Assembly: GCF_044324785.1 (NCBI RefSeq)
Contig: NZ_CP172127.1
Length of the DNA stretch: 64,000 nt
Source of the DNA: Escherichia coli
Lineage (GTDB): Bacteria; Pseudomonadota; Gammaproteobacteria; Enterobacterales; Enterobacteriaceae
Strand: one strand, 5' to 3'
Made by a program: the position numbers and the translations under genes. Every line of letters begins with the position of its first letter. Positions within the stretch are counted from its first letter, which is position 1. This document shows, piece after piece, positions 3,232 through 12,593 of this stretch. The notes beneath the pieces were generated by a model. That model was not told where the DNA came from and searched no databases. It was given only the letters and a program-made list of their open reading frames with translations.

Positions 3232-3370
3232 ATATTCCTTGTAACAACAGGGATAAACCGAACTAGTTAAAGTTTTTATTATGTTCCCTGCATCAGCGGG
3301 GATAAACCGGACTTGTTATCATTTTTTAAGTTGTCGAACTTATGTTCCCCGCGTCAGCGGGGATAACCAT
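3232..3370 (+). CRISPR. Decayed mini CRISPR array (3 degenerate repeats)
   Basis: Repeat-like units at 3232-3260 (only 3' half conserved), 3281-3309 (ATGTTCCCTGCATCAGCGGGGATAAACCG) and 3342-3370 (ATGTTCCCCGCGTCAGCGGGGATAACCAT); spacers of 20 and 32 nt; preceded by about 450 bp of AT-rich sequence. Confidence 0.75.
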
Positions 3371-3415: not shown

Positions 3416-4894
3416 TTACGCATTCGACCAGCTCTGGATCGAATCCGCATTCCCCAATTCCCCATGCATCACTTCATACGATTTTTTCAGGATCACATCA
3501 GTGTGCTTGGTTAGGTCTTTGAAAATGCCTTTATTCATCGCGTCGTAGCGTTTGGCGTTGCTCTCAACAGGCATAAAGATATCTTTCACGCGAACCATTT
3601 TGTCGACAGCCGTTGCGTAATCCGGGTATAGCCCCAGACCTACCGCCGTATTAATCGCTGCCCCCAGGCTTGCACAACCATTAATGGCGTTACGGCGTGC
3701 CGGAAGGTTGAACACGTCGGCAAAAATCTGCATAAACAGATCGCTGTTCGAACCGCCGCCAGTAATGATCACATGCTTTGCAAAGTGATTCATTTCATTA
3801 CACATATTGTCGTAATTGTTCTTCAGCGTCAGCGCCACGCTTTCCAGTATCGAACGATATATCCATGCGTAATCCATGCTGGAATCAAAGCCGATCATAA
3901 TCCCGCGTTTGTACGGTTCCCACGGATTGGTCAGCCAGTCCAGCACCGTCATCAGACCATTACAGCCAGGCGGCACACAAGACGCTTTTTTGTTGAGCAA
4001 ATCTTCCGGTGAAAGATCCTGTGCTTTGGCATCCTGAATTAACGACTCGCCTAACATGTCGCGCAGCCAGCTCACTGTCCACATGCCTTTGCGGATACCG
4101 TAACCTTCATACAGCAATGTTTGCGGAATAGAAGACATAATCGGCCAGTACGCTACCGGATCTTTCGGCAGTGCTTTGCCGTTCATCATCAACGCGATGT
4201 AAGTGCCAAGAGAAATTACCGCAGTTTCATCATCCAGTAACCCGGCTCCCAGTGCTTCTACCGGTTTATCACTGGTGGTACAAACAACCGGCAGCCCAGC
4301 CGGGAAATGTGTCGCCAGCGCGGCTTGAGGAGTGATATGCCCAAGAACAGTGCCCGGCATTTGCACATCAAACAGCATATGACGGGGGATATTAAACTTA
4401 TCCATTACCGCAGCCTCTTCGCTCCATGCCCAGGTCTTATAATCCACCGGCCACTGACCAAAATAGTTGGCGATATTGTCTTTAAACTCGCCGGTTAAGC
4501 GATGCGTCAGATAACCCGAAAAAGAGGTGACATATGCCACGTCAGGATTCGTATGTTCGTAAGGGCGTGTAACGCGTGCATCCTGCCAGCTGATCAACGG
4601 TGCAGCTGGCGTGCCATCGGCTTTCAATAACGCACGGCAGCAACGGATGGATCCCAGACCAATACCGACAATATCGTCTTTATTCCCGGCAAACTGACTC
4701 ATCAAATCGTGACCGGCAAAACATAATGATGCCCATAAATCGTCGTCAGGATGTTCTGCAGTATCGGCATCTGGCGTGTGCATCGGCTGCAATAAACCTT
4801 TGCCTTCGCAAACCACGTTACCTTCCAGATCGTACATCACCACTTTTGTGCTCTGACTTCCACCATCAATCCCTATGATGTATTTCTTCGACAT
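3416..4894 (-). CDS. ygcE: FGGY-family carbohydrate kinase
   Basis: 492-aa ORF; N-terminal MSKKYIIGIDGGSQSTKVVMYD typical of the sugar-kinase ATPase fold; matches E. coli YgcE. Confidence 0.9.
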   Translation of the reverse strand: MSKKYIIGIDGGSQSTKVVMYDLEGNVVCEGKGLLQPMHTPDADTAEHPDDDLWASLCFAGHDLMSQFAGNKDDIVGIGLGSIRCCRALLKADGTPAAPLISWQDARVTRPYEHTNPDVAYVTSFSGYLTHRLTGEFKDNIANYFGQWPVDYKTWAWSEEAAVMDKFNIPRHMLFDVQMPGTVLGHITPQAALATHFPAGLPVVCTTSDKPVEALGAGLLDDETAVISLGTYIALMMNGKALPKDPVAYWPIMSSIPQTLLYEGYGIRKGMWTVSWLRDMLGESLIQDAKAQDLSPEDLLNKKASCVPPGCNGLMTVLDWLTNPWEPYKRGIMIGFDSSMDYAWIYRSILESVALTLKNNYDNMCNEMNHFAKHVIITGGGSNSDLFMQIFADVFNLPARRNAINGCASLGAAINTAVGLGLYPDYATAVDKMVRVKDIFMPVESNAKRYDAMNKGIFKDLTKHTDVILKKSYEVMHGELGNADSIQSWSNA

Positions 4895-4920
4895 GATTTT
4901 TCTCCTGTAATTTTTCTGGC

Positions 4921-6198
4921 TTACTTGCTGTTAGCCGTTGCGGGGGTGCTATCAGCAGTACGAATTTTTTGGAACAGCAAAAAGGTAAAGACGATCACCA
5001 TGGCAAGCGCCGCCATGCCCATCAGCCACATATTGCGGTAGGCTTCTGCTGCGGGCAGGGTGTCTTGCCAGTGGCCGATAATTGGGTAAACGAAGACATC
5101 CGGCAGGAATCCAATCACCGAACAAATACCTACCGTGGTGCCCATAATGTAAGACGGTGTTCTTGCTTCGCCAGGGCAGGCCCAGTACAGCCCGCGTGAG
5201 GCGTAACAGGTGAATCCCAGCAGTAAAATCAGGCCAATCCCCATCGCGACCGATTGCGGGTTAGAGTTCGTGACGAGCAGGGCAGTTAACGCCAGCAGGC
5301 CGAGTACGGAAAGGATTTGGATCACGCGGGTAGGGGATTTCACTTTACTGTAGGTGGTAATAATGCCGCCAAGTGGGCCGCACAGCGCGCGGAAGATTTT
5401 GTTGATCACAATCCCCATGTAGCTCGCCGCCACCAGCGACATGCCGTACATTTCGGTCAGATAGTTGGTGGAGTAACTCAGAATGGCGTAGATGGTGAAG
5501 ACGCCAAAAATCACCATGCTGCAATACCAGGTGGTGCTGATACGCAAAACGGCCAGGATGTCGCTAAGCTGGAATGACTGTTTTTCTTCGTTATTGGCAC
5601 TGCGCAGGTTGTTGTTATCGCTAACAAAAAACCAGCACAGAATCCCCAACAAGATGTAAACCACACTGTAGATGATAATGACCGTTTTCAGGCTGGTGCT
5701 GTCATCCGGTGCAAAGCGAGAAAAGACCCACATGGTAAACACCGCCAGCGACATTACACCGACGCCGCGCAGCCCTTCCATCCAGCCCATAATTTTCCCT
5801 TGCTCACTATGATCGCCCAGCAATGAGGCGGCTTTAATCGACACCGACCACAGCATTAAAATCGTCGTTATCGCAAAGGCGATCTGAATACAGAGCATTA
5901 CCCACAGTGGTGGATATGTTGCCATTATCAGGCCCAGCAATCCGGTAATGATCATCGCGGAAGTAATCATTTTGCGGTGTGAAAATTTATCGGCAATAAC
6001 GCCGCTGGGGGCATAAAGAATAATAGCCGCAATACCAAAGGTACTCATTATTAAACCTATCTCGGTATTGCTGAATCCCATAAATTTCGCCATGGGAATT
6101 TGATAAATATAACGTAAATAAGCCAGGTCAAAACTAACGCCGCCGCTAAAACTAATTATCGCGAGGGTTATCCAACGGCGATATGAGTTGTGTTGCAT
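4921..6198 (-). CDS. yqcE: MFS transporter
   Basis: 425-aa ORF, multiple hydrophobic helices; matches E. coli YqcE; 26-bp gap to ygcE suggests an operon. Confidence 0.88.
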   Translation of the reverse strand: MQHNSYRRWITLAIISFSGGVSFDLAYLRYIYQIPMAKFMGFSNTEIGLIMSTFGIAAIILYAPSGVIADKFSHRKMITSAMIITGLLGLIMATYPPLWVMLCIQIAFAITTILMLWSVSIKAASLLGDHSEQGKIMGWMEGLRGVGVMSLAVFTMWVFSRFAPDDSTSLKTVIIIYSVVYILLGILCWFFVSDNNNLRSANNEEKQSFQLSDILAVLRISTTWYCSMVIFGVFTIYAILSYSTNYLTEMYGMSLVAASYMGIVINKIFRALCGPLGGIITTYSKVKSPTRVIQILSVLGLLALTALLVTNSNPQSVAMGIGLILLLGFTCYASRGLYWACPGEARTPSYIMGTTVGICSVIGFLPDVFVYPIIGHWQDTLPAAEAYRNMWLMGMAALAMVIVFTFLLFQKIRTADSTPATANSK

Positions 6199-6222
6199 AT
6201 CGTATTCCCATTTGTAATAGAC

Positions 6223-6270
6223 AAAAAAAAGAGAAAAGTAAGCCGCCCTTTCAGGTGGATTACTTTTCTC
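6223..6270 (-). terminator. Leader hairpin + U-tract (attenuator-like) upstream of yqcE
   Basis: On the minus strand: perfect 11-bp stem GAGAAAAGUAA / UUACUUUUCUC (6270..6231) with 18-nt loop, followed by U8 (6230..6223), about 25 nt before the yqcE start codon at 6198. Confidence 0.55.
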
Positions 6271-6319
6271 AGGTCTCTAGTAATTGCAATAAGAAATAAC
6301 ATGGAAAGCAGTGGTGTTG

Positions 6320-6335
6320 TGTGAGAGTAATCACG
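6320..6335. promoter_or_regulatory. CRP-like site TGTGA-N6-TCACg
   Basis: tgtgagagtaatcacg, 9/10 match to the TGTGA-N6-TCACA core, in the yqcE/ygcW divergent intergenic region. Confidence 0.45.
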
Positions 6336-6376
6336 CTTCTGCTTTTTAAAATTATTTGACAATTCGAATATCACAC

Positions 6377-6392
6377 TGTGATTACGATCACA
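6377..6392. promoter_or_regulatory. CRP-like site TGTGA-N6-TCACA (perfect half-sites)
   Basis: tgtgattacgatcaca; 57 bp from the other CRP-like site; followed by a TATGAT -10-like hexamer at 6408-6413. Confidence 0.55.
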
Positions 6393-6449
6393 TTAGCGAT
6401 TATGCCCTTATGATAAAAATTATCTCCAGTTACCAGAGATAATGAGAAA

Positions 6450-6492
6450 GGTAACTTCCCTCTCGCGGGGGAAGTTACCTTTCTTTTTTTTT
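6450..6492 (+). terminator. Leader hairpin + U-tract (attenuator-like) upstream of ygcW
   Basis: GGTAACTTCC (6450-6459) pairs perfectly with GGAAGTTACC (6470-6479), loop about 9 nt, then TTTCTTTTTTTTT (6480-6492), 25 nt before the ygcW ATG; an upstream hairpin (ttatctc...gagataa, 6420-6446) could form an alternative structure. Confidence 0.6.
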
Positions 6493-6516
6493 GCCTTACG
6501 GAAATTGGAGCTAACT

Positions 6517-7302
6517 ATGTCAATCGAATCTCTCAATGCGTTCTCAATGGATTTTTTCTCCCTGAAAGGTAAAACCGCTATTGTTACCGGCGGGAATAGC
6601 GGTTTAGGCCAGGCATTTGCCATGGCGCTGGCCAAAGCAGGCGCAAATATCTTTATTCCAAGCTTCGTTAAAGATAACGGCGAAACAAAGGAAATGATTG
6701 AAAAACAGGGTGTTGAAGTTGACTTTATGCAGGTGGATATCACCGCAAAAGGCGCGCCGCAGAAGATAATCGCCGCCTGTTGCGAACGTTTCGGTACCGT
6801 CGATATTCTGGTTAACAATGCCGGTATTTGTAAGCTGAATAAGGTGCTGGACTTCGGTCGTGCCGACTGGGATCCAATGATTGATGTGAACCTGACCGCC
6901 GCATTCGAGTTAAGCTATGAAGCTGCAAAAATTATGATCCCGCAGAAAAGCGGTAAAATCATTAATATCTGTTCATTATTCTCTTACTTAGGTGGACAAT
7001 GGTCACCTGCATATTCTGCCACTAAACATGCTCTTGCCGGATTCACCAAAGCTTATTGTGATGAACTAGGTCAATATAATATTCAGGTAAATGGTATTGC
7101 CCCTGGCTATTATGCAACAGATATTACGCTGGCGACACGCAGTAATCCAGAAACCAATCAGCGCGTTCTTGATCATATTCCGGCAAACCGTTGGGGCGAT
7201 ACTCAGGATTTAATGGGCGCAGCCGTATTCCTCGCAAGTCCGGCTTCAAATTATGTTAACGGGCATTTATTAGTGGTCGATGGCGGTTATTTAGTGCGCT
7301 AA
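6517..7302 (+). CDS. ygcW: Short-chain dehydrogenase/reductase (KduD/IdnO-like)
   Basis: 261 aa from MSIESLNAF; TGGNSGLGQA Rossmann glycine motif; matches E. coli YgcW; track ORF begins upstream at 6442. Confidence 0.88.
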   Translation: MSIESLNAFSMDFFSLKGKTAIVTGGNSGLGQAFAMALAKAGANIFIPSFVKDNGETKEMIEKQGVEVDFMQVDITAKGAPQKIIAACCERFGTVDILVNNAGICKLNKVLDFGRADWDPMIDVNLTAAFELSYEAAKIMIPQKSGKIINICSLFSYLGGQWSPAYSATKHALAGFTKAYCDELGQYNIQVNGIAPGYYATDITLATRSNPETNQRVLDHIPANRWGDTQDLMGAAVFLASPASNYVNGHLLVVDGGYLVR

Positions 7303-7371
7303 TCCATAACGGTGGTTTCTGTTTTCTCTTATTAATGATTATTCCATTTTTATTATCAGGAAGGAATTACT

Positions 7372-8826
7372 ATGTCTTTATCTCGCGCAGCGATAGTCGA
7401 CCAGCTAAAGGAAATTGTTGGTGCAGATCGCGTAATTACCGATGAAACAGTATTAAAGAAAAACAGTATTGACCGTTTTCGCAAATTTCCGGATATTCAT
7501 GGCATTTATACTTTGCCGATTCCGGCAGCGGTCGTAAAACTCGGTTCCACAGAACAAGTATCCCGTGTGCTGAATTTTATGAATGCGCACAAAATTAACG
7601 GTGTGCCGCGTACCGGTGCTTCCGCTACCGAAGGTGGGCTGGAAACCGTTGTGGAAAACTCGGTGGTGCTCGACGGCTCTGCCATGAATCAAATCATTAA
7701 TATTGATATTGAGAATATGCAGGCCACGGCGCAATGTGGTGTTCCGCTGGAAGTGCTGGAAAACGCGTTGCGTGAAAAAGGTTACACCACGGGGCATTCT
7801 CCGCAGTCAAAGCCGCTGGCGCAGATGGGCGGCCTGGTAGCAACCCGCAGTATTGGGCAGTTCTCCACACTCTACGGCGCAATCGAAGATATGGTCGTTG
7901 GTCTGGAAGCAGTATTGGCTGATGGCACCGTGACACGCATTAAAAACGTGCCACGTCGCGCGGCTGGCCCGGACATTCGTCACATCATCATCGGCAACGA
8001 AGGTGCATTGTGCTATATCACTGAAGTAACAGTGAAAATCTTTAAATTCACCCCAGAAAACAACCTCTTCTACGGCTATATCCTGGAAGACATGAAAACC
8101 GGCTTCAACATCCTGCGTGAAATCATGGTGGAAGGGTATCGTCCGTCGATCGCTCGTTTGTATGACGCCGAAGATGGCACCCAACACTTCACCCATTTTG
8201 CCGACGGAAAATGCGTGTTGATCTTTATGGCTGAAGGTAACCCTCGCATTGCGAAGGCGACGGGCGAAGGGATTGCGGAAATCGTAGCTCGCTACCCGCA
8301 ATGCCAGCGCGTGGACAGCAAGCTGATCGAAACCTGGTTTAACAACCTGAACTGGGGACCGGATAAAGTAGCTGCCGAACGTGTGCAGATCCTCAAAACC
8401 GGCAACATGGGCTTTACCACCGAAGTGTCCGGCTGCTGGAGCTGCATTCACGAAATCTACGAAAGCGTTATTAACCGTATTCGTACCGAGTTCCCGCACG
8501 CCGACGACATCACCATGCTGGGCGGTCACTCCTCTCATAGCTACCAGAACGGCACCAACATGTACTTCGTCTACGACTACAACGTCGTTGACTGTAAGCC
8601 GGAAGAGGAAATCGACAAGTACCACAATCCGCTCAACAAAATCATCTGCGAAGAAACCATTCGCCTCGGTGGTTCGATGGTGCACCACCACGGTATCGGT
8701 AAACATCGCGTTCACTGGAGCAAACTGGAACACGGCAGCGCGTGGGCGTTGCTGGAAGGGCTGAAAAAGCAGTTCGATCCTAACGGCATTATGAATACGG
8801 GTACTATCTATCCGATTGAAAAATAA
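7372..8826 (+). CDS. ygcU: FAD-linked oxidase (PCMH-type FAD-binding, GlcD/alkyl-DHAP synthase-like)
   Basis: 484-aa ORF; matches E. coli YgcU. Confidence 0.88.
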   Translation: MSLSRAAIVDQLKEIVGADRVITDETVLKKNSIDRFRKFPDIHGIYTLPIPAAVVKLGSTEQVSRVLNFMNAHKINGVPRTGASATEGGLETVVENSVVLDGSAMNQIINIDIENMQATAQCGVPLEVLENALREKGYTTGHSPQSKPLAQMGGLVATRSIGQFSTLYGAIEDMVVGLEAVLADGTVTRIKNVPRRAAGPDIRHIIIGNEGALCYITEVTVKIFKFTPENNLFYGYILEDMKTGFNILREIMVEGYRPSIARLYDAEDGTQHFTHFADGKCVLIFMAEGNPRIAKATGEGIAEIVARYPQCQRVDSKLIETWFNNLNWGPDKVAAERVQILKTGNMGFTTEVSGCWSCIHEIYESVINRIRTEFPHADDITMLGGHSSHSYQNGTNMYFVYDYNVVDCKPEEEIDKYHNPLNKIICEETIRLGGSMVHHHGIGKHRVHWSKLEHGSAWALLEGLKKQFDPNGIMNTGTIYPIEK

Positions 8827-8919
8827 TGTGTCAGGCAGCGTTCCACGATGACGGGGCGTTGCCATTTCGGCTTCTCAGGCGAGAAGCCGTTCTTATTACC
8901 GGACAATGAAGGGGTAAAG

Positions 8920-10257
8920 ATGAACACTTCACCGGTGCGAATGGATGATTTACCGCTTAACCGTTTTCACTGTCGAATTGCTGCGCTCACTTTCGGCGCG
9001 CACCTGACCGACGGTTATGTTCTCGGCGTCATTGGTTACGCCATTATTCAGCTTACACCCGCCATGCAACTGACGCCGTTTATGGCGGGAATGATTGGCG
9101 GCTCGGCGCTCCTTGGTTTGTTTCTTGGCAGCCTGGTTCTTGGATGGATCTCCGACCATATTGGTCGGCAAAAAATCTTCACCTTCAGCTTTTTGCTGAT
9201 TACGCTCGCTTCGTTCTTGCAATTTTTTGCCACCACGCCAGAGCATCTTATTGGGCTGCGCATTTTGATCGGCATTGGGCTGGGAGGCGATTACTCAGTC
9301 GGTCACACCTTGCTGGCTGAATTTTCCCCGCGCCGCCATCGCGGTGTTTTGCTGGGCGCATTCAGCGTGGTGTGGACCGTAGGCTATGTGTTGGCAAGTA
9401 TTGCCGGACATCACTTTATTAGCGAAAGCCCGGAGGCCTGGCGCTGGCTGCTGGCATCGGCAGCTCTGCCCGCGTTGTTGATTACGTTATTACGCTGGGG
9501 AACGCCAGAATCGCCACGCTGGCTACTGCGCCAGGGGCGTTTTGCAGAAGCTCACGCTATCGTGCATCGCTATTTTGGTCCCCATGTTTTACTGGGCGAT
9601 GAAGTGGCAACGGCGACCCATAAACACATCAAAACCTTGTTCTCTTCGCGCTACTGGCGGCGCACGGCGTTTAACAGCGTCTTCTTTGTCTGCCTCGTAA
9701 TCCCATGGTTTGTGATTTATACCTGGCTGCCAACTATCGCCCAAACTATTGGTCTGGAAGATGCGCTGACTGCCAGCCTGATGCTTAATGCGTTGTTAAT
9801 TGTGGGCGCGCTGCTGGGATTAGTTCTGACGCACCTGCTGGCACATCGCAAATTTTTGCTGGGAAGTTTTTTGCTGCTGGCGGCAACGCTGGTAGTAATG
9901 GCCTGTTTGCCTTCCGGCAGTTCATTAACGCTGCTGCTTTTTGTTCTCTTCAGCACCACCATTTCTGCAGTCAGTAATCTGGTGGGCATTTTGCCTGCGG
10001 AAAGTTTTCCTACTGACATTCGCTCGCTGGGCGTCGGTTTTGCCACCGCCATGAGTCGGTTGGGGGCGGCGGTAAGTACTGGCCTGCTGCCGTGGGTGCT
10101 GGCGCAGTGGGGAATGCAAGTCACCTTATTGCTCCTGGCGGCAGTGTTGTTGGTTGGTTTTGTCGTGACCTGGCTATGGGCACCAGAAACCAAAGCACTC
10201 CCGCTGGTGGCGGCGGGAAATGTAGGAGGTGCGAATGAACATTCTGTTAGCGTTTAA
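8920..10257 (+). CDS. ygcS: MFS sugar/metabolite transporter
   Basis: 445 aa from MNTSPVR; about 12 hydrophobic segments; matches E. coli YgcS; 3' end overlaps ygcR. Confidence 0.85.
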   Translation: MNTSPVRMDDLPLNRFHCRIAALTFGAHLTDGYVLGVIGYAIIQLTPAMQLTPFMAGMIGGSALLGLFLGSLVLGWISDHIGRQKIFTFSFLLITLASFLQFFATTPEHLIGLRILIGIGLGGDYSVGHTLLAEFSPRRHRGVLLGAFSVVWTVGYVLASIAGHHFISESPEAWRWLLASAALPALLITLLRWGTPESPRWLLRQGRFAEAHAIVHRYFGPHVLLGDEVATATHKHIKTLFSSRYWRRTAFNSVFFVCLVIPWFVIYTWLPTIAQTIGLEDALTASLMLNALLIVGALLGLVLTHLLAHRKFLLGSFLLLAATLVVMACLPSGSSLTLLLFVLFSTTISAVSNLVGILPAESFPTDIRSLGVGFATAMSRLGAAVSTGLLPWVLAQWGMQVTLLLLAAVLLVGFVVTWLWAPETKALPLVAAGNVGGANEHSVSV

Positions 10258-11014
10258 AGCCGAACCGGATGCCGGAATGCTGGCGGAAAAAGAGTGGCAG
10301 GCGGCGGTTCAGGGTAATAGCGGACCGGATGTTTCGCTTCTGCGAAGTTTACTCGGTGCTGATGAACAGGCTGCCGCCGCGCTGCTGTTGGCGCAGAGAA
10401 AAAACGGTACGTCGATGTCTTTAACCGCGTTGAGCATGGGGGATGAACGGGCGTTGCACTGGCTGCGCTATCTCATGGCTCTTGGGTTTGAGGAAGCTGT
10501 ATTGCTGGAGATGGCGGCAGATCTGCGCTTTGCGCCGGAATTTGTCGCTCGCCATATTGCCGAATGGCAGCGTCAGAATCCGCTGGATCTGATAATTACC
10601 GGCTGCCAAAGCAGCGAAGGGCAGAATGGGCAAACGCCATTTTTGCTGGCGGAAATGCTGGGCTGGCCCTGCTTCACCCAGGTGGAGCGTTTTACTCTCG
10701 ACGCGCCGTTTATCACCCTCGAACAGCGTACTGAAAACGGGCTGCGCTGTTGCCGGGTTCGCATGCCTGCGGTGATTGCCGTGCGTCAGTGCGGTGAAGT
10801 GGCCTTGCCAGTACCGGGAATGCGCCAGCGTATGGCGGCGGGGAAAGCAGAAATTATCCGTAAAACTGTTGCTGCCGAATCGCCAGCGATGCAGTGTCTG
10901 CAACTGGCAAGAGCAGAGCAACAACGCGGAGCGACGCTGATTGATGGGCAAACGGTAGCAGAAAAAGCGCAAAAGCTATGGCAGGACTATTTACGCCAAA
11001 GGATGCAGCCATGA
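10235..11014 (+). CDS. ygcR: Electron-transfer flavoprotein beta-subunit-like (FixA-like)
   Basis: 259 aa from MNILLAFK; matches E. coli YgcR; overlaps ygcS end and ygcQ start. Confidence 0.85.
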   Translation: MNILLAFKAEPDAGMLAEKEWQAAVQGNSGPDVSLLRSLLGADEQAAAALLLAQRKNGTSMSLTALSMGDERALHWLRYLMALGFEEAVLLEMAADLRFAPEFVARHIAEWQRQNPLDLIITGCQSSEGQNGQTPFLLAEMLGWPCFTQVERFTLDAPFITLEQRTENGLRCCRVRMPAVIAVRQCGEVALPVPGMRQRMAAGKAEIIRKTVAAESPAMQCLQLARAEQQRGATLIDGQTVAEKAQKLWQDYLRQRMQP

Positions 11015-11871
11015 ATATCGCAATTGTGACAATAAATCAGGAGAATGCCGCAATAGCGAGCTGGCTGGCAGAACAGGATTTCAGCGGTTGTACCCTGGCG
11101 CACTGGCAGATTGAACCTCAGCCCGTAGTGGCGGAACAGGTGCTGGATGCGCTGGTGGAACAGTGGCAGCGAACGCCTGCGGACGTTGTTCTCTTTCCGC
11201 CGGGAACGTTTGGTGATGAACTGTCGACACGGTTGGCCTGGCGATTACATGGTGCAAGCATCAGCCAGGTGACTTCGTTAGATATTTCAACCGGAAGCGT
11301 GCGCAAATACCACTGGGGAAATGCGCTAACGGCGACGCTGCAAACAGAAAAACGCCCGCTATGCCTTTCCCTTGCCCGCCAGACGGGAGCAGTGAAAAAC
11401 GCCACATTGCCCTCTGGTATGCAGCAACTGAACATTGTCCCCGGCGCGCTTCCCGACTGGCTGGTTAGCACAGAGGATCTGAAAAATGTTACCCGTGACC
11501 CATTAGCTGAGGCCAGACGGGTGCTGGTGGTGGGGCAGGGCGGAGAGGCAGATAACCAGGAAATCGCTATGCTGGCAGAAAAGCTGGGAGCCGAAGTGGG
11601 CTACAGTCGGGCACGAGTGATGAACGGTGGCGTTGATGCCGAAAAAGTGATTGGTATTTCCGGACATCTGCTGGCACCTGAGGTGTGTATTGTTGTTGGC
11701 GCTTCCGGCGCAGCAGCGTTAATGGCGGGCGTCCGCAATAGCAAGTTTGTGGTGGCGATTAATCATGACGCCAGCGCGGCGGTATTTTCACAGGCAGATG
11801 TTGGCGTGGTTGATGACTGGAAAGCGGTGCTGGAGGCACTGGTGACAACCATTCACGTAGATTGCCAATAA
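11011..11871 (+). CDS. ygcQ: Electron-transfer flavoprotein alpha-subunit-like (FixB-like)
   Basis: 286 aa from MNIAIVT; ATGA overlap with ygcR stop; matches E. coli YgcQ. Confidence 0.85.
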   Translation: MNIAIVTINQENAAIASWLAEQDFSGCTLAHWQIEPQPVVAEQVLDALVEQWQRTPADVVLFPPGTFGDELSTRLAWRLHGASISQVTSLDISTGSVRKYHWGNALTATLQTEKRPLCLSLARQTGAVKNATLPSGMQQLNIVPGALPDWLVSTEDLKNVTRDPLAEARRVLVVGQGGEADNQEIAMLAEKLGAEVGYSRARVMNGGVDAEKVIGISGHLLAPEVCIVVGASGAAALMAGVRNSKFVVAINHDASAAVFSQADVGVVDDWKAVLEALVTTIHVDCQ

Positions 11872-11874
11872 CGT

Positions 11875-11985
11875 GCTGCCGGATGATCCTGCCTACGGTT
11901 CTGGGCTGGGGACTTGTAAGCCTGATAAGACGCGTCAAGCGTCGTATCAGGCGCTGAATGTCGGATGTGGCGTGCAGCCTACAAA
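11875..11985. repeat. REP/BIME extragenic palindromes
   Basis: gcctgataagacgcg...cgtcgtatcaggc palindrome flanked by gccggatg / gtcggatgtggcgtgcagcctac REP-like units, between convergent ygcQ and ygcP. Confidence 0.7.
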
Positions 11986-12017
11986 TCACACAAATTCAAC
12001 TCGTTACGAGTATCCCG

Positions 12018-12593
12018 TCAAAGCAATTTTTTCGCTAACGTCCAGACCCCGGTATTCGTGGTGGAAAGCGCCACGACACCCGCGTTAATCGCATTACGCG
12101 CATCTTCTTCATCGCACACCAGCCCGCCGGCAATCAGCGGTTGGCGGATTTTCTCCGTCACCCAGCCCAGAACTTTAGGCATACAGCCTGGCAGGATCTC
12201 AATACAATCCGGATTCGATTGCGCAACTTGCTTATCAATGTTGTGAAACGAAATCGAATCAACAATAAACAGGCGATGAATACAGAAAAAACCTTCCGCT
12301 CTTGCCGCTTTCAGCATCGATGCTTTCGTGCTGATAATGCCGTCCGCCTCGGTCACCAGTTTCAAAAACTGAATCACCACTTCTTTATTTGACGCGCCTT
12401 CCAGCAAATCAACATGAATAAAAGCATATTTTCCGGCATTTTTAATCTTTTTAACGATTTGACTAATGGTGCAGATATTGCCGTACAACACGGAAATAAA
12501 CTGGCATTCAGAGTCGATTGCCAGTTGCAGGCTGGCATTATCTTTAACGGCAGCAATCACCGGATTCTGGCGGAGCAGGTGTAAGAGGGGCAT
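12018..12593 (-). CDS. ygcP: GlpP-family putative RNA-binding antiterminator
   Basis: 191-aa ORF; matches E. coli YgcP. Confidence 0.82.
   Translation of the reverse strand: MPLLHLLRQNPVIAAVKDNASLQLAIDSECQFISVLYGNICTISQIVKKIKNAGKYAFIHVDLLEGASNKEVVIQFLKLVTEADGIISTKASMLKAARAEGFFCIHRLFIVDSISFHNIDKQVAQSNPDCIEILPGCMPKVLGWVTEKIRQPLIAGGLVCDEEDARNAINAGVVALSTTNTGVWTLAKKLL

Follow-up and report, generated by a model that had tools for sequence, protein, structure and literature searches.

Two inverted, CRP-coupled leader modules in the yqcE/ygcW spacer of Escherichia coli and a candidate antitermination role for the PF04309 protein YgcP

Introduction

In Bacillus subtilis, the PF04309 protein GlpP is encoded with the genes that it regulates and acts at glpD, glpFK and glpTQ. 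The GlpP system combines a strong leader terminator with a weak, GA-rich 5' hairpin that shares its 3' strand with the 5' half of that terminator; its regulon includes an FGGY kinase and a flavin dehydrogenase, and catabolite control is laid on top. Here we analyze the divergent spacer between yqcE and ygcW in the Escherichia coli ygc locus, which encodes the PF04309 protein YgcP, and we find that this locus, with its putative regulon, shares each of those properties. The spacer lies in a 64,000-nucleotide stretch of E. coli DNA (contig NZ_CP172127.1), called the window below, to which all unlabelled positions refer.

The ygc system also differs from that of GlpP. YgcP and canonical GlpP are no more than distant relatives (E 8.5e-28 against the Listeria GlpP structure, 3KTS). 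The putative ygc regulon is not devoted to glycerol, for which E. coli uses GlpR: it contains a short-chain dehydrogenase/reductase (SDR), a GlcD-like flavin adenine dinucleotide (FAD) oxidase with its own electron transfer flavoprotein (ETF) and ETF-quinone oxidoreductase-like proteins, and major facilitator superfamily (MFS) transporters. Two inverted copies of the leader element share one divergent spacer, the 5' hairpin begins at about +1 of the predicted transcript rather than at +14, and the gamma-proteobacterial versions have class II-like CRP sites for initiation. Relative to known GlpP-type antitermination, two features are new: the antiterminator hairpin, defined here and supported by covariation, and the cassette, duplicated and coupled to CRP.

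The BglG/SacY family offers a second precedent. There, as we propose for ygc, a protein stabilizes a weak 5' hairpin (the ribonucleic antiterminator, or RAT) that shares bases with a leader terminator, and the E. coli bgl operon has two terminators flanking or within it and depends on CRP. The fold differs, however (CAT-PRD rather than the PF04309 barrel), and the proposed ygc control is not exerted by phosphotransferase-system phosphorylation. We found no CAT-PRD antiterminator gene among the annotated or profiled genes of the locus, the RAT sequence itself not being explicitly searched for. The ygc loop, with its two spaced GAG(A) repeats, also recalls the reading of NAG or GAG triplets by HutP and TRAP (for HutP, see PMC2425495), but it has only two repeats, placed in a hairpin loop, and the protein belongs to another family. 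HutP, by contrast, binds at two sites to destabilize the terminator, and TRAP favours termination.

Our comparisons strongly suggest that YgcP directs antitermination at both the yqcE and ygcW leaders. We assign a probability of about 0.66 to the complete model, in which two CRP-coupled cassettes are each controlled by YgcP at the leader.

Two leader hairpins as copies of one module

An earlier note on this DNA had described a strong hairpin followed directly by a U-tract in each divergent leader. Both structures are present, and the ygcW stem extends further than was described, to 19 bp:

6199-6516: yqcE/ygcW divergent spacer, 318 bp
6444..6492, plus strand: ygcW-leader intrinsic terminator (19-bp stem 6444-6485, GC-rich core 6450-6479, U-tract 6480-6492)
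6223..6270, minus strand: yqcE-leader intrinsic terminator (stem 6270-6260 with 6241-6231, inner stem, U8 at 6230-6223)

In the ygcW leader, GGTAACTTCCC pairs with GGGAAGTTACC to form the core (6450-6479, plus strand), followed by TTTCTTTTTTTTT at 6480-6492; this hairpin folds at -31.0 kcal/mol, against -11.8 +/- 2.4 kcal/mol for shuffled sequences (z -7.9). In the yqcE leader, the lower stem is formed by GAGAAAAGTAA and TTACTTTTCTC (6270-6260 with 6241-6231, minus strand), followed by T8, and the hairpin folds at -20.5 kcal/mol (z -4.7). For neither hairpin was any of 200 shuffles as stable. Each terminator points the same way as its gene; bidirectional termination was considered and ruled out, as the opposite strands carry no T-run.

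Sequence comparison indicates that the two leader hairpins are homologous copies of one module of about 74 nt. They share a lower stem and tail, GAGAAARGTAA...TTACYTTTCTY-T8-G, which occurs in the 64-kb window only at these two leaders, a count reached in 0 of 100 shuffles. We collected 65 loci through YgcP and found three more (Vibrio hannami, Clostridium sediminicola and Sporomusa) through the protein alone, for a total of 68; P0092 (Vallitalea) was left out, since no contig position was obtained. The module was retained in both leaders of every Enterobacterales spacer examined, from Escherichia, Citrobacter, Klebsiella, Enterobacter, Yokenella, Pluralibacter, Mixta, Buttiauxella, Serratia, Rahnella, Ewingella, Budvicia, Limnobaculum, Pantoea, Erwinia and Izhakiella. 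Its layout in this order is RUUACY, 0-3 nt, AGAGA, N3-5, GAGAAARGUAAY, a variable upper stem, RUURCYUUUCUC and U7-9.

A covariance model, R1, was built from 36 module copies (its E-values are rough). A search of the 1.28 Mb of loci with R1 returned 101 matches of 59-87 bits and nothing else at that level, with exactly two strong matches in each of 49 Enterobacterales loci, one per leader, all in the yqcE/ygcW spacer. Neither pattern search of the window nor R1, run over the window and all loci, revealed a third module, such as one ahead of ygcN-ygcO-ygcP or ygcS. BLAST of the module over E. coli genomes likewise gave a median of two places per genome.

In the covariation analysis, which the earlier note had proposed across Enterobacteriaceae, the hairpins are kept, with compensatory changes, in more than 20 genera. 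Pairs of the terminator are 95% kept, and 7 of 16 show double changes, mostly in the upper stem. The GAG and GAGAAA of the loop did not vary over 93 distinct sequences. The spacer of this strain differs from that of K-12 by seven substitutions, none of which falls within the hairpins of either module. Rfam 15 held no matching family (best score 26 bits against thresholds of 60-100, which is chance level), and RefSeq has no annotation beneath the module.

Each hairpin is also an inverted repeat in the DNA with a conserved outer half-site, and the palindromes could in principle be operators at which a repressor bound just downstream of the promoter forms a roadblock. We consider this very unlikely: the inner stem varies freely with compensation, the loop varies in length, the T-run always follows and does so on the transcribed strand only, and transcript 3' ends map there (see below). 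Furthermore, no gene for a DNA-binding regulator is conserved at the locus.

Several individual spacers depart from the usual arrangement. In Limnobaculum eriocheiris (L032:13856-13985), the yqcE-ygcW spacer is only 130 nt long and holds a single symmetric hairpin between A9 and T9, which suggests that the two inverted modules recombined and that both promoters and both CRP sites were lost in the process. In Limnobaculum allomyrinae (L034) and Budvicia diplopodorum (L041), the two modules of each genome have identical upper stems and loops, and because these parts vary between genera, the identity suggests gene conversion between the inverted copies. In Citrobacter youngae (L010:16324-16469) and Klebsiella spallanzanii (L012:12670-12815), an insertion of about 127 bp separates the yqcE-side terminator from the yqcE start codon; it presumably resembles the enterobacterial repetitive intergenic consensus (ERIC, or intergenic repeat unit, IRU) element.

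A competing helix as candidate antiterminator

The RUUACY at the 5' end of the module is complementary to RGUAAY, the segment of the terminator 5' half that directly follows GAGAAA. The resulting candidate hairpins are:

6429..6455, plus strand: ygcW-leader antiterminator hairpin (GUUACC 6429-6434 with GGUAAC 6450-6455; loop AGAGAUAAUGAGAAA, 6435-6449)
6259..6284, minus strand: yqcE-leader antiterminator hairpin (AUUACU 6284-6279 with AGUAAU 6264-6259; loop AGAGACCUGAGAAA, 6278-6265)

The loop is 14-15 nt long and carries a near-invariant GAGA-N3-5-GAGAAA. In a model-based alignment of the 93 distinct sequences, the 6-bp helix was 93.7% paired, compared with 14-54% when the partner strand was slid by 1-3 columns. 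Two of the six helix pairs show compensatory changes, and a single sequence has one at a third pair. At 7/37, 66 sequences have G-C and 26 have A-U (the yqcE-leader copy being A-U); at 12/32, U-A is found in 66 and C-G in 23; and pair 10/34 is G-C in one sequence of the set (locus L027) and also in Listeria. In the A-U copies, column 37 faces a C and is thus unpaired in the terminator; because of this, the change at 7/37 makes sense only for the alternative helix. Further cases that arose independently are GUUGCC/GGCGAC in L027, where the 3' strand of the terminator is altered too, GUUGCU/AGCGAC in Listeria, GUUUC/GAAAC in Faecalibacterium and AUUACU/AGUAAU in Sporomusa.

Folding gave the same picture. 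For 5' fragments of the leaders, the minimum-energy fold is the antiterminator hairpin, at -6.7 kcal/mol for ygcW and -1.4 kcal/mol for yqcE, and the same hairpin folds from 5' fragments of both E. coli leaders and of the Listeria, Thalassobacillus and B. subtilis glpD leaders (-1.4 to -8.8 kcal/mol). The terminators of those leaders are far stronger, at -20 to -42 kcal/mol. Such an arrangement of a weak and a strong hairpin is typical of switches in which a protein must keep the weak one closed.

The earlier note had expected an alternative antiterminator structure, to be formed with a hairpin at 6420-6446. The expectation of an alternative structure is borne out by the conserved 6-bp helix; the particular hairpin is not. 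Both this strain and K-12 have the 6420-6446 hairpin, yet it is broken in other Escherichia and in Citrobacter, and with its left arm ahead of the predicted start of transcription it would be largely untranscribed. Since it is unconserved and begins ahead of that start, we preferred the 6-bp helix and rejected this candidate.

YgcP might act otherwise than by blocking the terminator, through protection of the mRNA, through translation or by binding the folded terminator stem. The invariant GAGAAA sits within that stem, and GlpP is reported to have a dual role at glpD, in antitermination and in mRNA stabilization (Glatz et al. 1996, cited in PMC9604022). The covarying alternative helix, however, is most simply read as a structural switch, and terminated transcripts are seen in vivo; we therefore give such modes of action little credence.

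The leader also contains an ATG at 6442, from which an open reading frame of 286 aa (6442-7302) runs into ygcW, and which might allow leader-peptide attenuation or an N-terminal extension of YgcW. Many ygcW-side leaders have the sequence ATGAGAAA, and the Escherichia frame is open and continues in phase into ygcW. Of 51 spacers, however, only 13 have the frame open and in phase; it is shifted out of phase in 18 and interrupted in 20, and 9 lack the ATG; at its position the yqcE-side copies have CTG, CAG, AAG or ACG, and there is no usable Shine-Dalgarno spacing. We regard a coding role for the leader as having practically no prospect of being correct, and we set the 286-aa frame aside as an artefact, as the hairpin and U-tract make up its first 25 codons and the frame lacks conservation.

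Termination at both leaders in vivo

To look for terminated transcripts, as the earlier note had proposed, we consulted the published Term-seq map of E. coli MG1655 grown in lysogeny broth (LB) to an optical density of 0.4 (Adams et al. 2021, supplementary file 3; PMC7815308). It lists one 3' end per leader. The ygcW-leader end, at 2900311 (minus strand), lies 38 nt before ygcW and is supported by 40,640 reads; its Rho score is 0.50 ('No'), and it scores 15.8 as an intrinsic terminator (PMC7815308). The yqcE-leader end, at 2900556 (plus strand), lies 36 nt before yqcE and is supported by 1,557 reads; its Rho score is 0.61 ('No'), and it scores 11.4 as an intrinsic terminator (PMC7815308). Transferred to the window, these ends fall at 6479 (...GGGGGAAGUUACC|) for the ygcW leader and 6234 (...GGCGGCUUACUUUU|) for the yqcE leader. 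We conclude that both leaders terminate transcripts in vivo without Rho, as intrinsic terminators. A lack of termination at the two hairpins, which the earlier note had set out as a refuting outcome, is thus not observed. PMC7815308 marks no regulatory element at either 3' end, and the TERMITe supplements have no entry for the genes of the yqcE or ygcW leader.

The abundance of the ygcW-leader end in LB raises the question of whether the hairpins are simply unregulated partial terminators, or the source of stable leader RNAs of about 55 nt that act in trans as small RNAs (sRNAs) or dampen expression, with YgcP uninvolved. Both short RNAs would end in a hairpin and U-tail, the shape of Hfq-binding sRNAs, and several 5' untranslated region (UTR) fragments act as sRNAs in the same study (PMC7815308). 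This explanation does not account for the covariation of RUUACY with the terminator 5' half, for the presence of the module before different genes in Firmicutes, Negativicutes and Vibrio, always beside a ygcP homologue, or for the maintenance of two copies per locus in both orientations. We thus consider it unlikely as a substitute for regulated antitermination, although the short leader RNAs could have a trans-acting role in addition to their role in cis.

CRP sites and promoters

The two CRP-like sites reported between the leaders are present, each with its own predicted promoter:

6320..6335 (centre 6327.5): CRP-like site for the yqcE promoter, TGTGAGAGTAATCACG, 9/10 half-site match
6377..6392 (centre 6384.5): CRP site for the ygcW promoter, TGTGATTACGATCACA
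6411..6419, plus strand: predicted extended -10 of the ygcW promoter, TG-A-TAAAAA (predicted start ~6426-6428)
6293..6301, minus strand: predicted extended -10 of the yqcE promoter, TG-T-TATTTC (predicted start ~6286-6285)

The site at 6377-6392 is bound by CRP, as found by chromatin immunoprecipitation sequencing in enterotoxigenic E. coli (PMC4287617) and by Footprint-seq, with a dissociation constant of about 1.7 nM (PMC12871828). In addition, the yqcE/ygcW spacer is among the top CRP predictions of PhyloScan (PMC1794230), and yqcE-ygcE is given as Crp-activated (PMC8085971).

The roughly class II distance between each site and its own leader proved to be fixed in all loci. On the yqcE side, 42.5-44.5 nt separate the CRP centre from the module's first stem base at every locus; on the ygcW side, it lies 43.5-45.5 nt upstream of the module at all loci, including Vibrio. 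The distance is 44.5 nt in most loci, and in Vibrio hannami it is 44.5 nt twice. The distance between the two sites, by comparison, varies widely across spacers of 310 to 465 bp while the distance from CRP site to module stays fixed. Likewise, TGnTA is kept in all genera, 7-8 nt before AGUUAC. This geometry fits class II-like CRP promoters, with the CRP centre at about -41.5 and predicted starts 0-2 nt before the module. Because the CRP distance is fixed and TGnTA is conserved, transcription should start at the first bases of the module. In this strain, the spacer base of the predicted ygcW extended -10, at window position 6412, differs from K-12 (L001 spacer position 215), the sequence being TGATAAAAA here and TGCTAAAAA in K-12.

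YgcP accompanies the module across phyla

The earlier note had recognized YgcP as a homologue of GlpP, and the family assignments agree: PF04309 is recorded on all 120 of the YgcP homologues among the matches listed, and the relatives with solved structures are Listeria GlpP (3KTS) and TM1436 (1VKF). NCBIfam has no model for YgcP.

In nearly all of the 65 loci collected through YgcP, the ygcU/ygcW/yqcE/ygcE cluster is linked to ygcP, and the module accompanies ygcP homologues beyond Enterobacterales. In Thalassobacillus, a 61-bit module precedes ygcW-ygcE-ygcU, divergent from ygcP, and in five Listeria species it precedes a ygcU-ygcP-yqcE-ygcW-ygcE operon. Two copies are found in a Bacillus ygcP locus, in the divergent spacer of Vibrio hannami (71 and 66 bits) and before the same gene families in Clostridium sediminicola (62 and 54 bits) and Sporomusa (40 and 39 bits). 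The lower stem, invariant elsewhere, is altered with compensation in Sporomusa (GAGGAUAGUA/UACUGUCCUC). Across phyla, no regulator-like gene other than the PF04309 gene remains with the module, and the PF04309 gene was linked to the module-bearing operons in all 68 loci examined.

The second modules of two of these loci lie within or after the operon: between the kinase and FAD-oxidase genes in Clostridium (L068:6265-6332) and before a BCCT transporter gene in Sporomusa (L069:17125-17192). At these positions antitermination would gate the distal genes too. We also observed that YgcW is 76-78% identical between E. coli and Listeria (L056-L059, L063), YqcE about 48% and YgcP 55-57%. The high identity of YgcW relative to YqcE and YgcP suggests that the cluster passed horizontally between Firmicutes and gamma-proteobacteria.

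The B. subtilis glpD leader extends the comparison to a known GlpP target. Its 5' UTR contains GGUCC-UGAGAU-GAG-GAGAGA-CC, overlapping its terminator (PMC9604022, Table S4). We found that GGUC...GACC around UGAGAUGAGGAGA folds into an analogous hairpin, and that the ygcW leader (GUUACC-AGAGAU-AAU-GAGAAAG-GUAAC) has the core GAGAU-N3-GAGA spaced alike. Three clostridial loci are canonical glpP loci with glpK and glycerol-3-phosphate oxidase genes; they have GA-rich leader terminators, and two of these matched R1 weakly.

A direct role for YgcP is what we infer from this co-occurrence and from the analogy with GlpP, whereas the competition between antiterminator and terminator is supported independently. 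The switch could thus be real and its effector something other than YgcP, either a very small metabolite riboswitch or another RNA-binding protein. The sensing part, however, is only about 27 nt with a purine-rich open loop, which is far simpler than known riboswitch aptamers, and it has no Rfam match; in addition, the PF04309 gene alone among regulator-like genes follows the module, and the GlpP-dependent glpD leader has the same layout. An effector other than YgcP therefore appears quite improbable.

A model for the two cassettes

Together, these results are consistent with a model in which protein-mediated antitermination probably turns on an uncharacterized pathway for a sugar or polyol. 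The spacer would consist of two back-to-back copies of one cassette, serving yqcE-ygcE and ygcW-ygcU-(ygcSRQ), each made up of a CRP site about 41.5 bp before the predicted start, an extended -10 (TGnTA) and the 74-nt leader module from about +1. The first ~27 nt of the RNA would form the weak hairpin with its 6-bp RUUACY/RGUAAY stem, whose RGUAAY strand, with GAGAAA, would also be the 5' half of the much stronger terminator ahead of U8-9. By default the terminator would win and transcripts stop, the step seen by Term-seq in LB. We propose that YgcP, on sensing an inducer, binds the GAGA-loop hairpin and keeps it closed, which would block the terminator and let RNA polymerase read into the genes, just as GlpP acts with glycerol-3-phosphate at the glpD leader of B. 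subtilis. Expression would then require both cAMP-CRP for initiation and inducer for read-through.

By analogy with glycerol-3-phosphate made by GlpK, the inducer is probably the phosphorylated product of the FGGY kinase YgcE. The gene content of the locus (a non-GlpK FGGY kinase, a KduD-like SDR, a GlcD-like FAD oxidase, ETF, FixC/FixX-like proteins and two MFS transporters) is not that of the glycerol regulon, so glycerol-3-phosphate is probably not the ligand; a different phosphorylated compound is the likely effector.

Several points weigh against this model. The literature search yielded nothing relevant on ygcP, PF04309 or the yqcE/ygcW leader, and no experiment that ties YgcP to the leaders. 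All loci were gathered through ygcP, and the sample is therefore one of ygcP-bearing loci. The transcription starts are predictions from promoter geometry. The mapped 3' ends, 6479 and 6234, do not reach the U-tracts but fall on or within the 3' side of the stems, 6-7 nt short of the expected release point; because they precede that point, we assume exonucleolytic 3' trimming toward the stable stem, or processing. The compensatory changes in the 6-bp helix go back to few independent events, in approximately four to six lineages, and the invariant GAGAAA doubles as the lower terminator stem, such that part of its conservation could reflect pairing. Finally, the comparison with canonical GlpP targets comprises one B. 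subtilis leader and three clostridial GA-rich leaders judged by eye. On balance, YgcP-controlled antitermination still explains more of the observations than do unregulated termination or sRNA production, a riboswitch, an effect on stability, or DNA operators.

A broader proposal is that the GAGA-loop hairpin is a general PF04309 recognition element, from the glp leaders of Firmicutes to the ygc leaders of enterobacteria, and that YgcP provides a second case, after BglG, of protein-dependent leader antitermination in E. coli, responding, instead of to glycerol-3-phosphate, to a phosphorylated intermediate of an uncharacterized, ETF-linked pathway for a sugar or polyol that has moved between Firmicutes and gamma-proteobacteria. 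We regard the odds for and against this proposal as evenly balanced.

The model provides a concrete, testable regulatory mechanism for about ten 'y' genes of E. coli K-12 and a candidate function for ygcP. If it is true, protein-mediated antitermination in a leader would have a second example in E. coli; in keeping with the earlier note, no paper in the literature searched describes leader control of this locus. The alignment gives, at nucleotide level, a probable PF04309 recognition element, a 6-bp stem with a GAGA-N3-5-GAGAAA loop. Such an element was not found defined in the literature searched, even for B. subtilis GlpP, and Rfam is without such a family. The module could be used to map regulons of the PF04309 family, and read-through of the leader could reveal the inducer and the pathway. 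The glpD leader is already useful in synthetic biology (PMC9604022); the cassette described here (CRP site, extended -10 and 74-nt switch) is compact and portable.

Organization of the locus and other features of the window

The window contains the ygc locus in reverse orientation relative to K-12, with 96.4% identity to K-12 and 99% to an O169:H41 strain. The ygc region was found in 5071 of 5426 complete E. coli genomes. Its genes and predicted transcription units are as follows:

3416-4894, minus strand: ygcE, FGGY kinase
4921-6198, minus strand: yqcE, MFS transporter
3416..6198, minus strand: yqcE-ygcE operon, behind the minus-strand module
6517-7302, plus strand: ygcW, SDR (KduD-like)
6517..11871, plus strand: ygcW, ygcU (FAD oxidase, GlcD-like), ygcS (MFS), ygcR (ETF beta) and ygcQ (ETF alpha), behind the plus-strand module
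12018-12593, minus strand: ygcP, PF04309 (G3P_antiterm), candidate antiterminator
beyond ygcP, minus strand: ygcO, ygcN

From their spacing, ygcW, ygcU, ygcS, ygcR and ygcQ appear to form one operon. Within it, the ygcU-ygcS spacer (8827-8925) contains two strong hairpins (-40.5 kcal/mol, z -4.1), one of which is CGGCTTCTC-AGGC-GAGAAGCCG, followed by TTCTTATT. The 469-aa ygcS start in RefSeq (8848) crosses these hairpins; a 445-aa start at 8920 leaves them intergenic, and they could be a partial internal terminator.

A clustered regularly interspaced short palindromic repeats (CRISPR) array lies between queE and ygcE, at 2200-2777 and 3232-3370. It consists of about ten type I-E-like repeats of 29 nt (GTGTTCCCCGCGCCAGCGGGGATAAACCG) at a 61-nt spacing, with degenerate copies closer to ygcE, and a K-12 CRISPR is annotated at the same place. 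The array was detected by repeat search and missed by Tandem Repeats Finder. Between the convergent ygcQ and ygcP genes (11872-12017) are palindromes resembling repetitive extragenic palindromic (REP) elements, GCCTGATAAGACGCG...CGTCGTATCAGGC and GCCGGATG...

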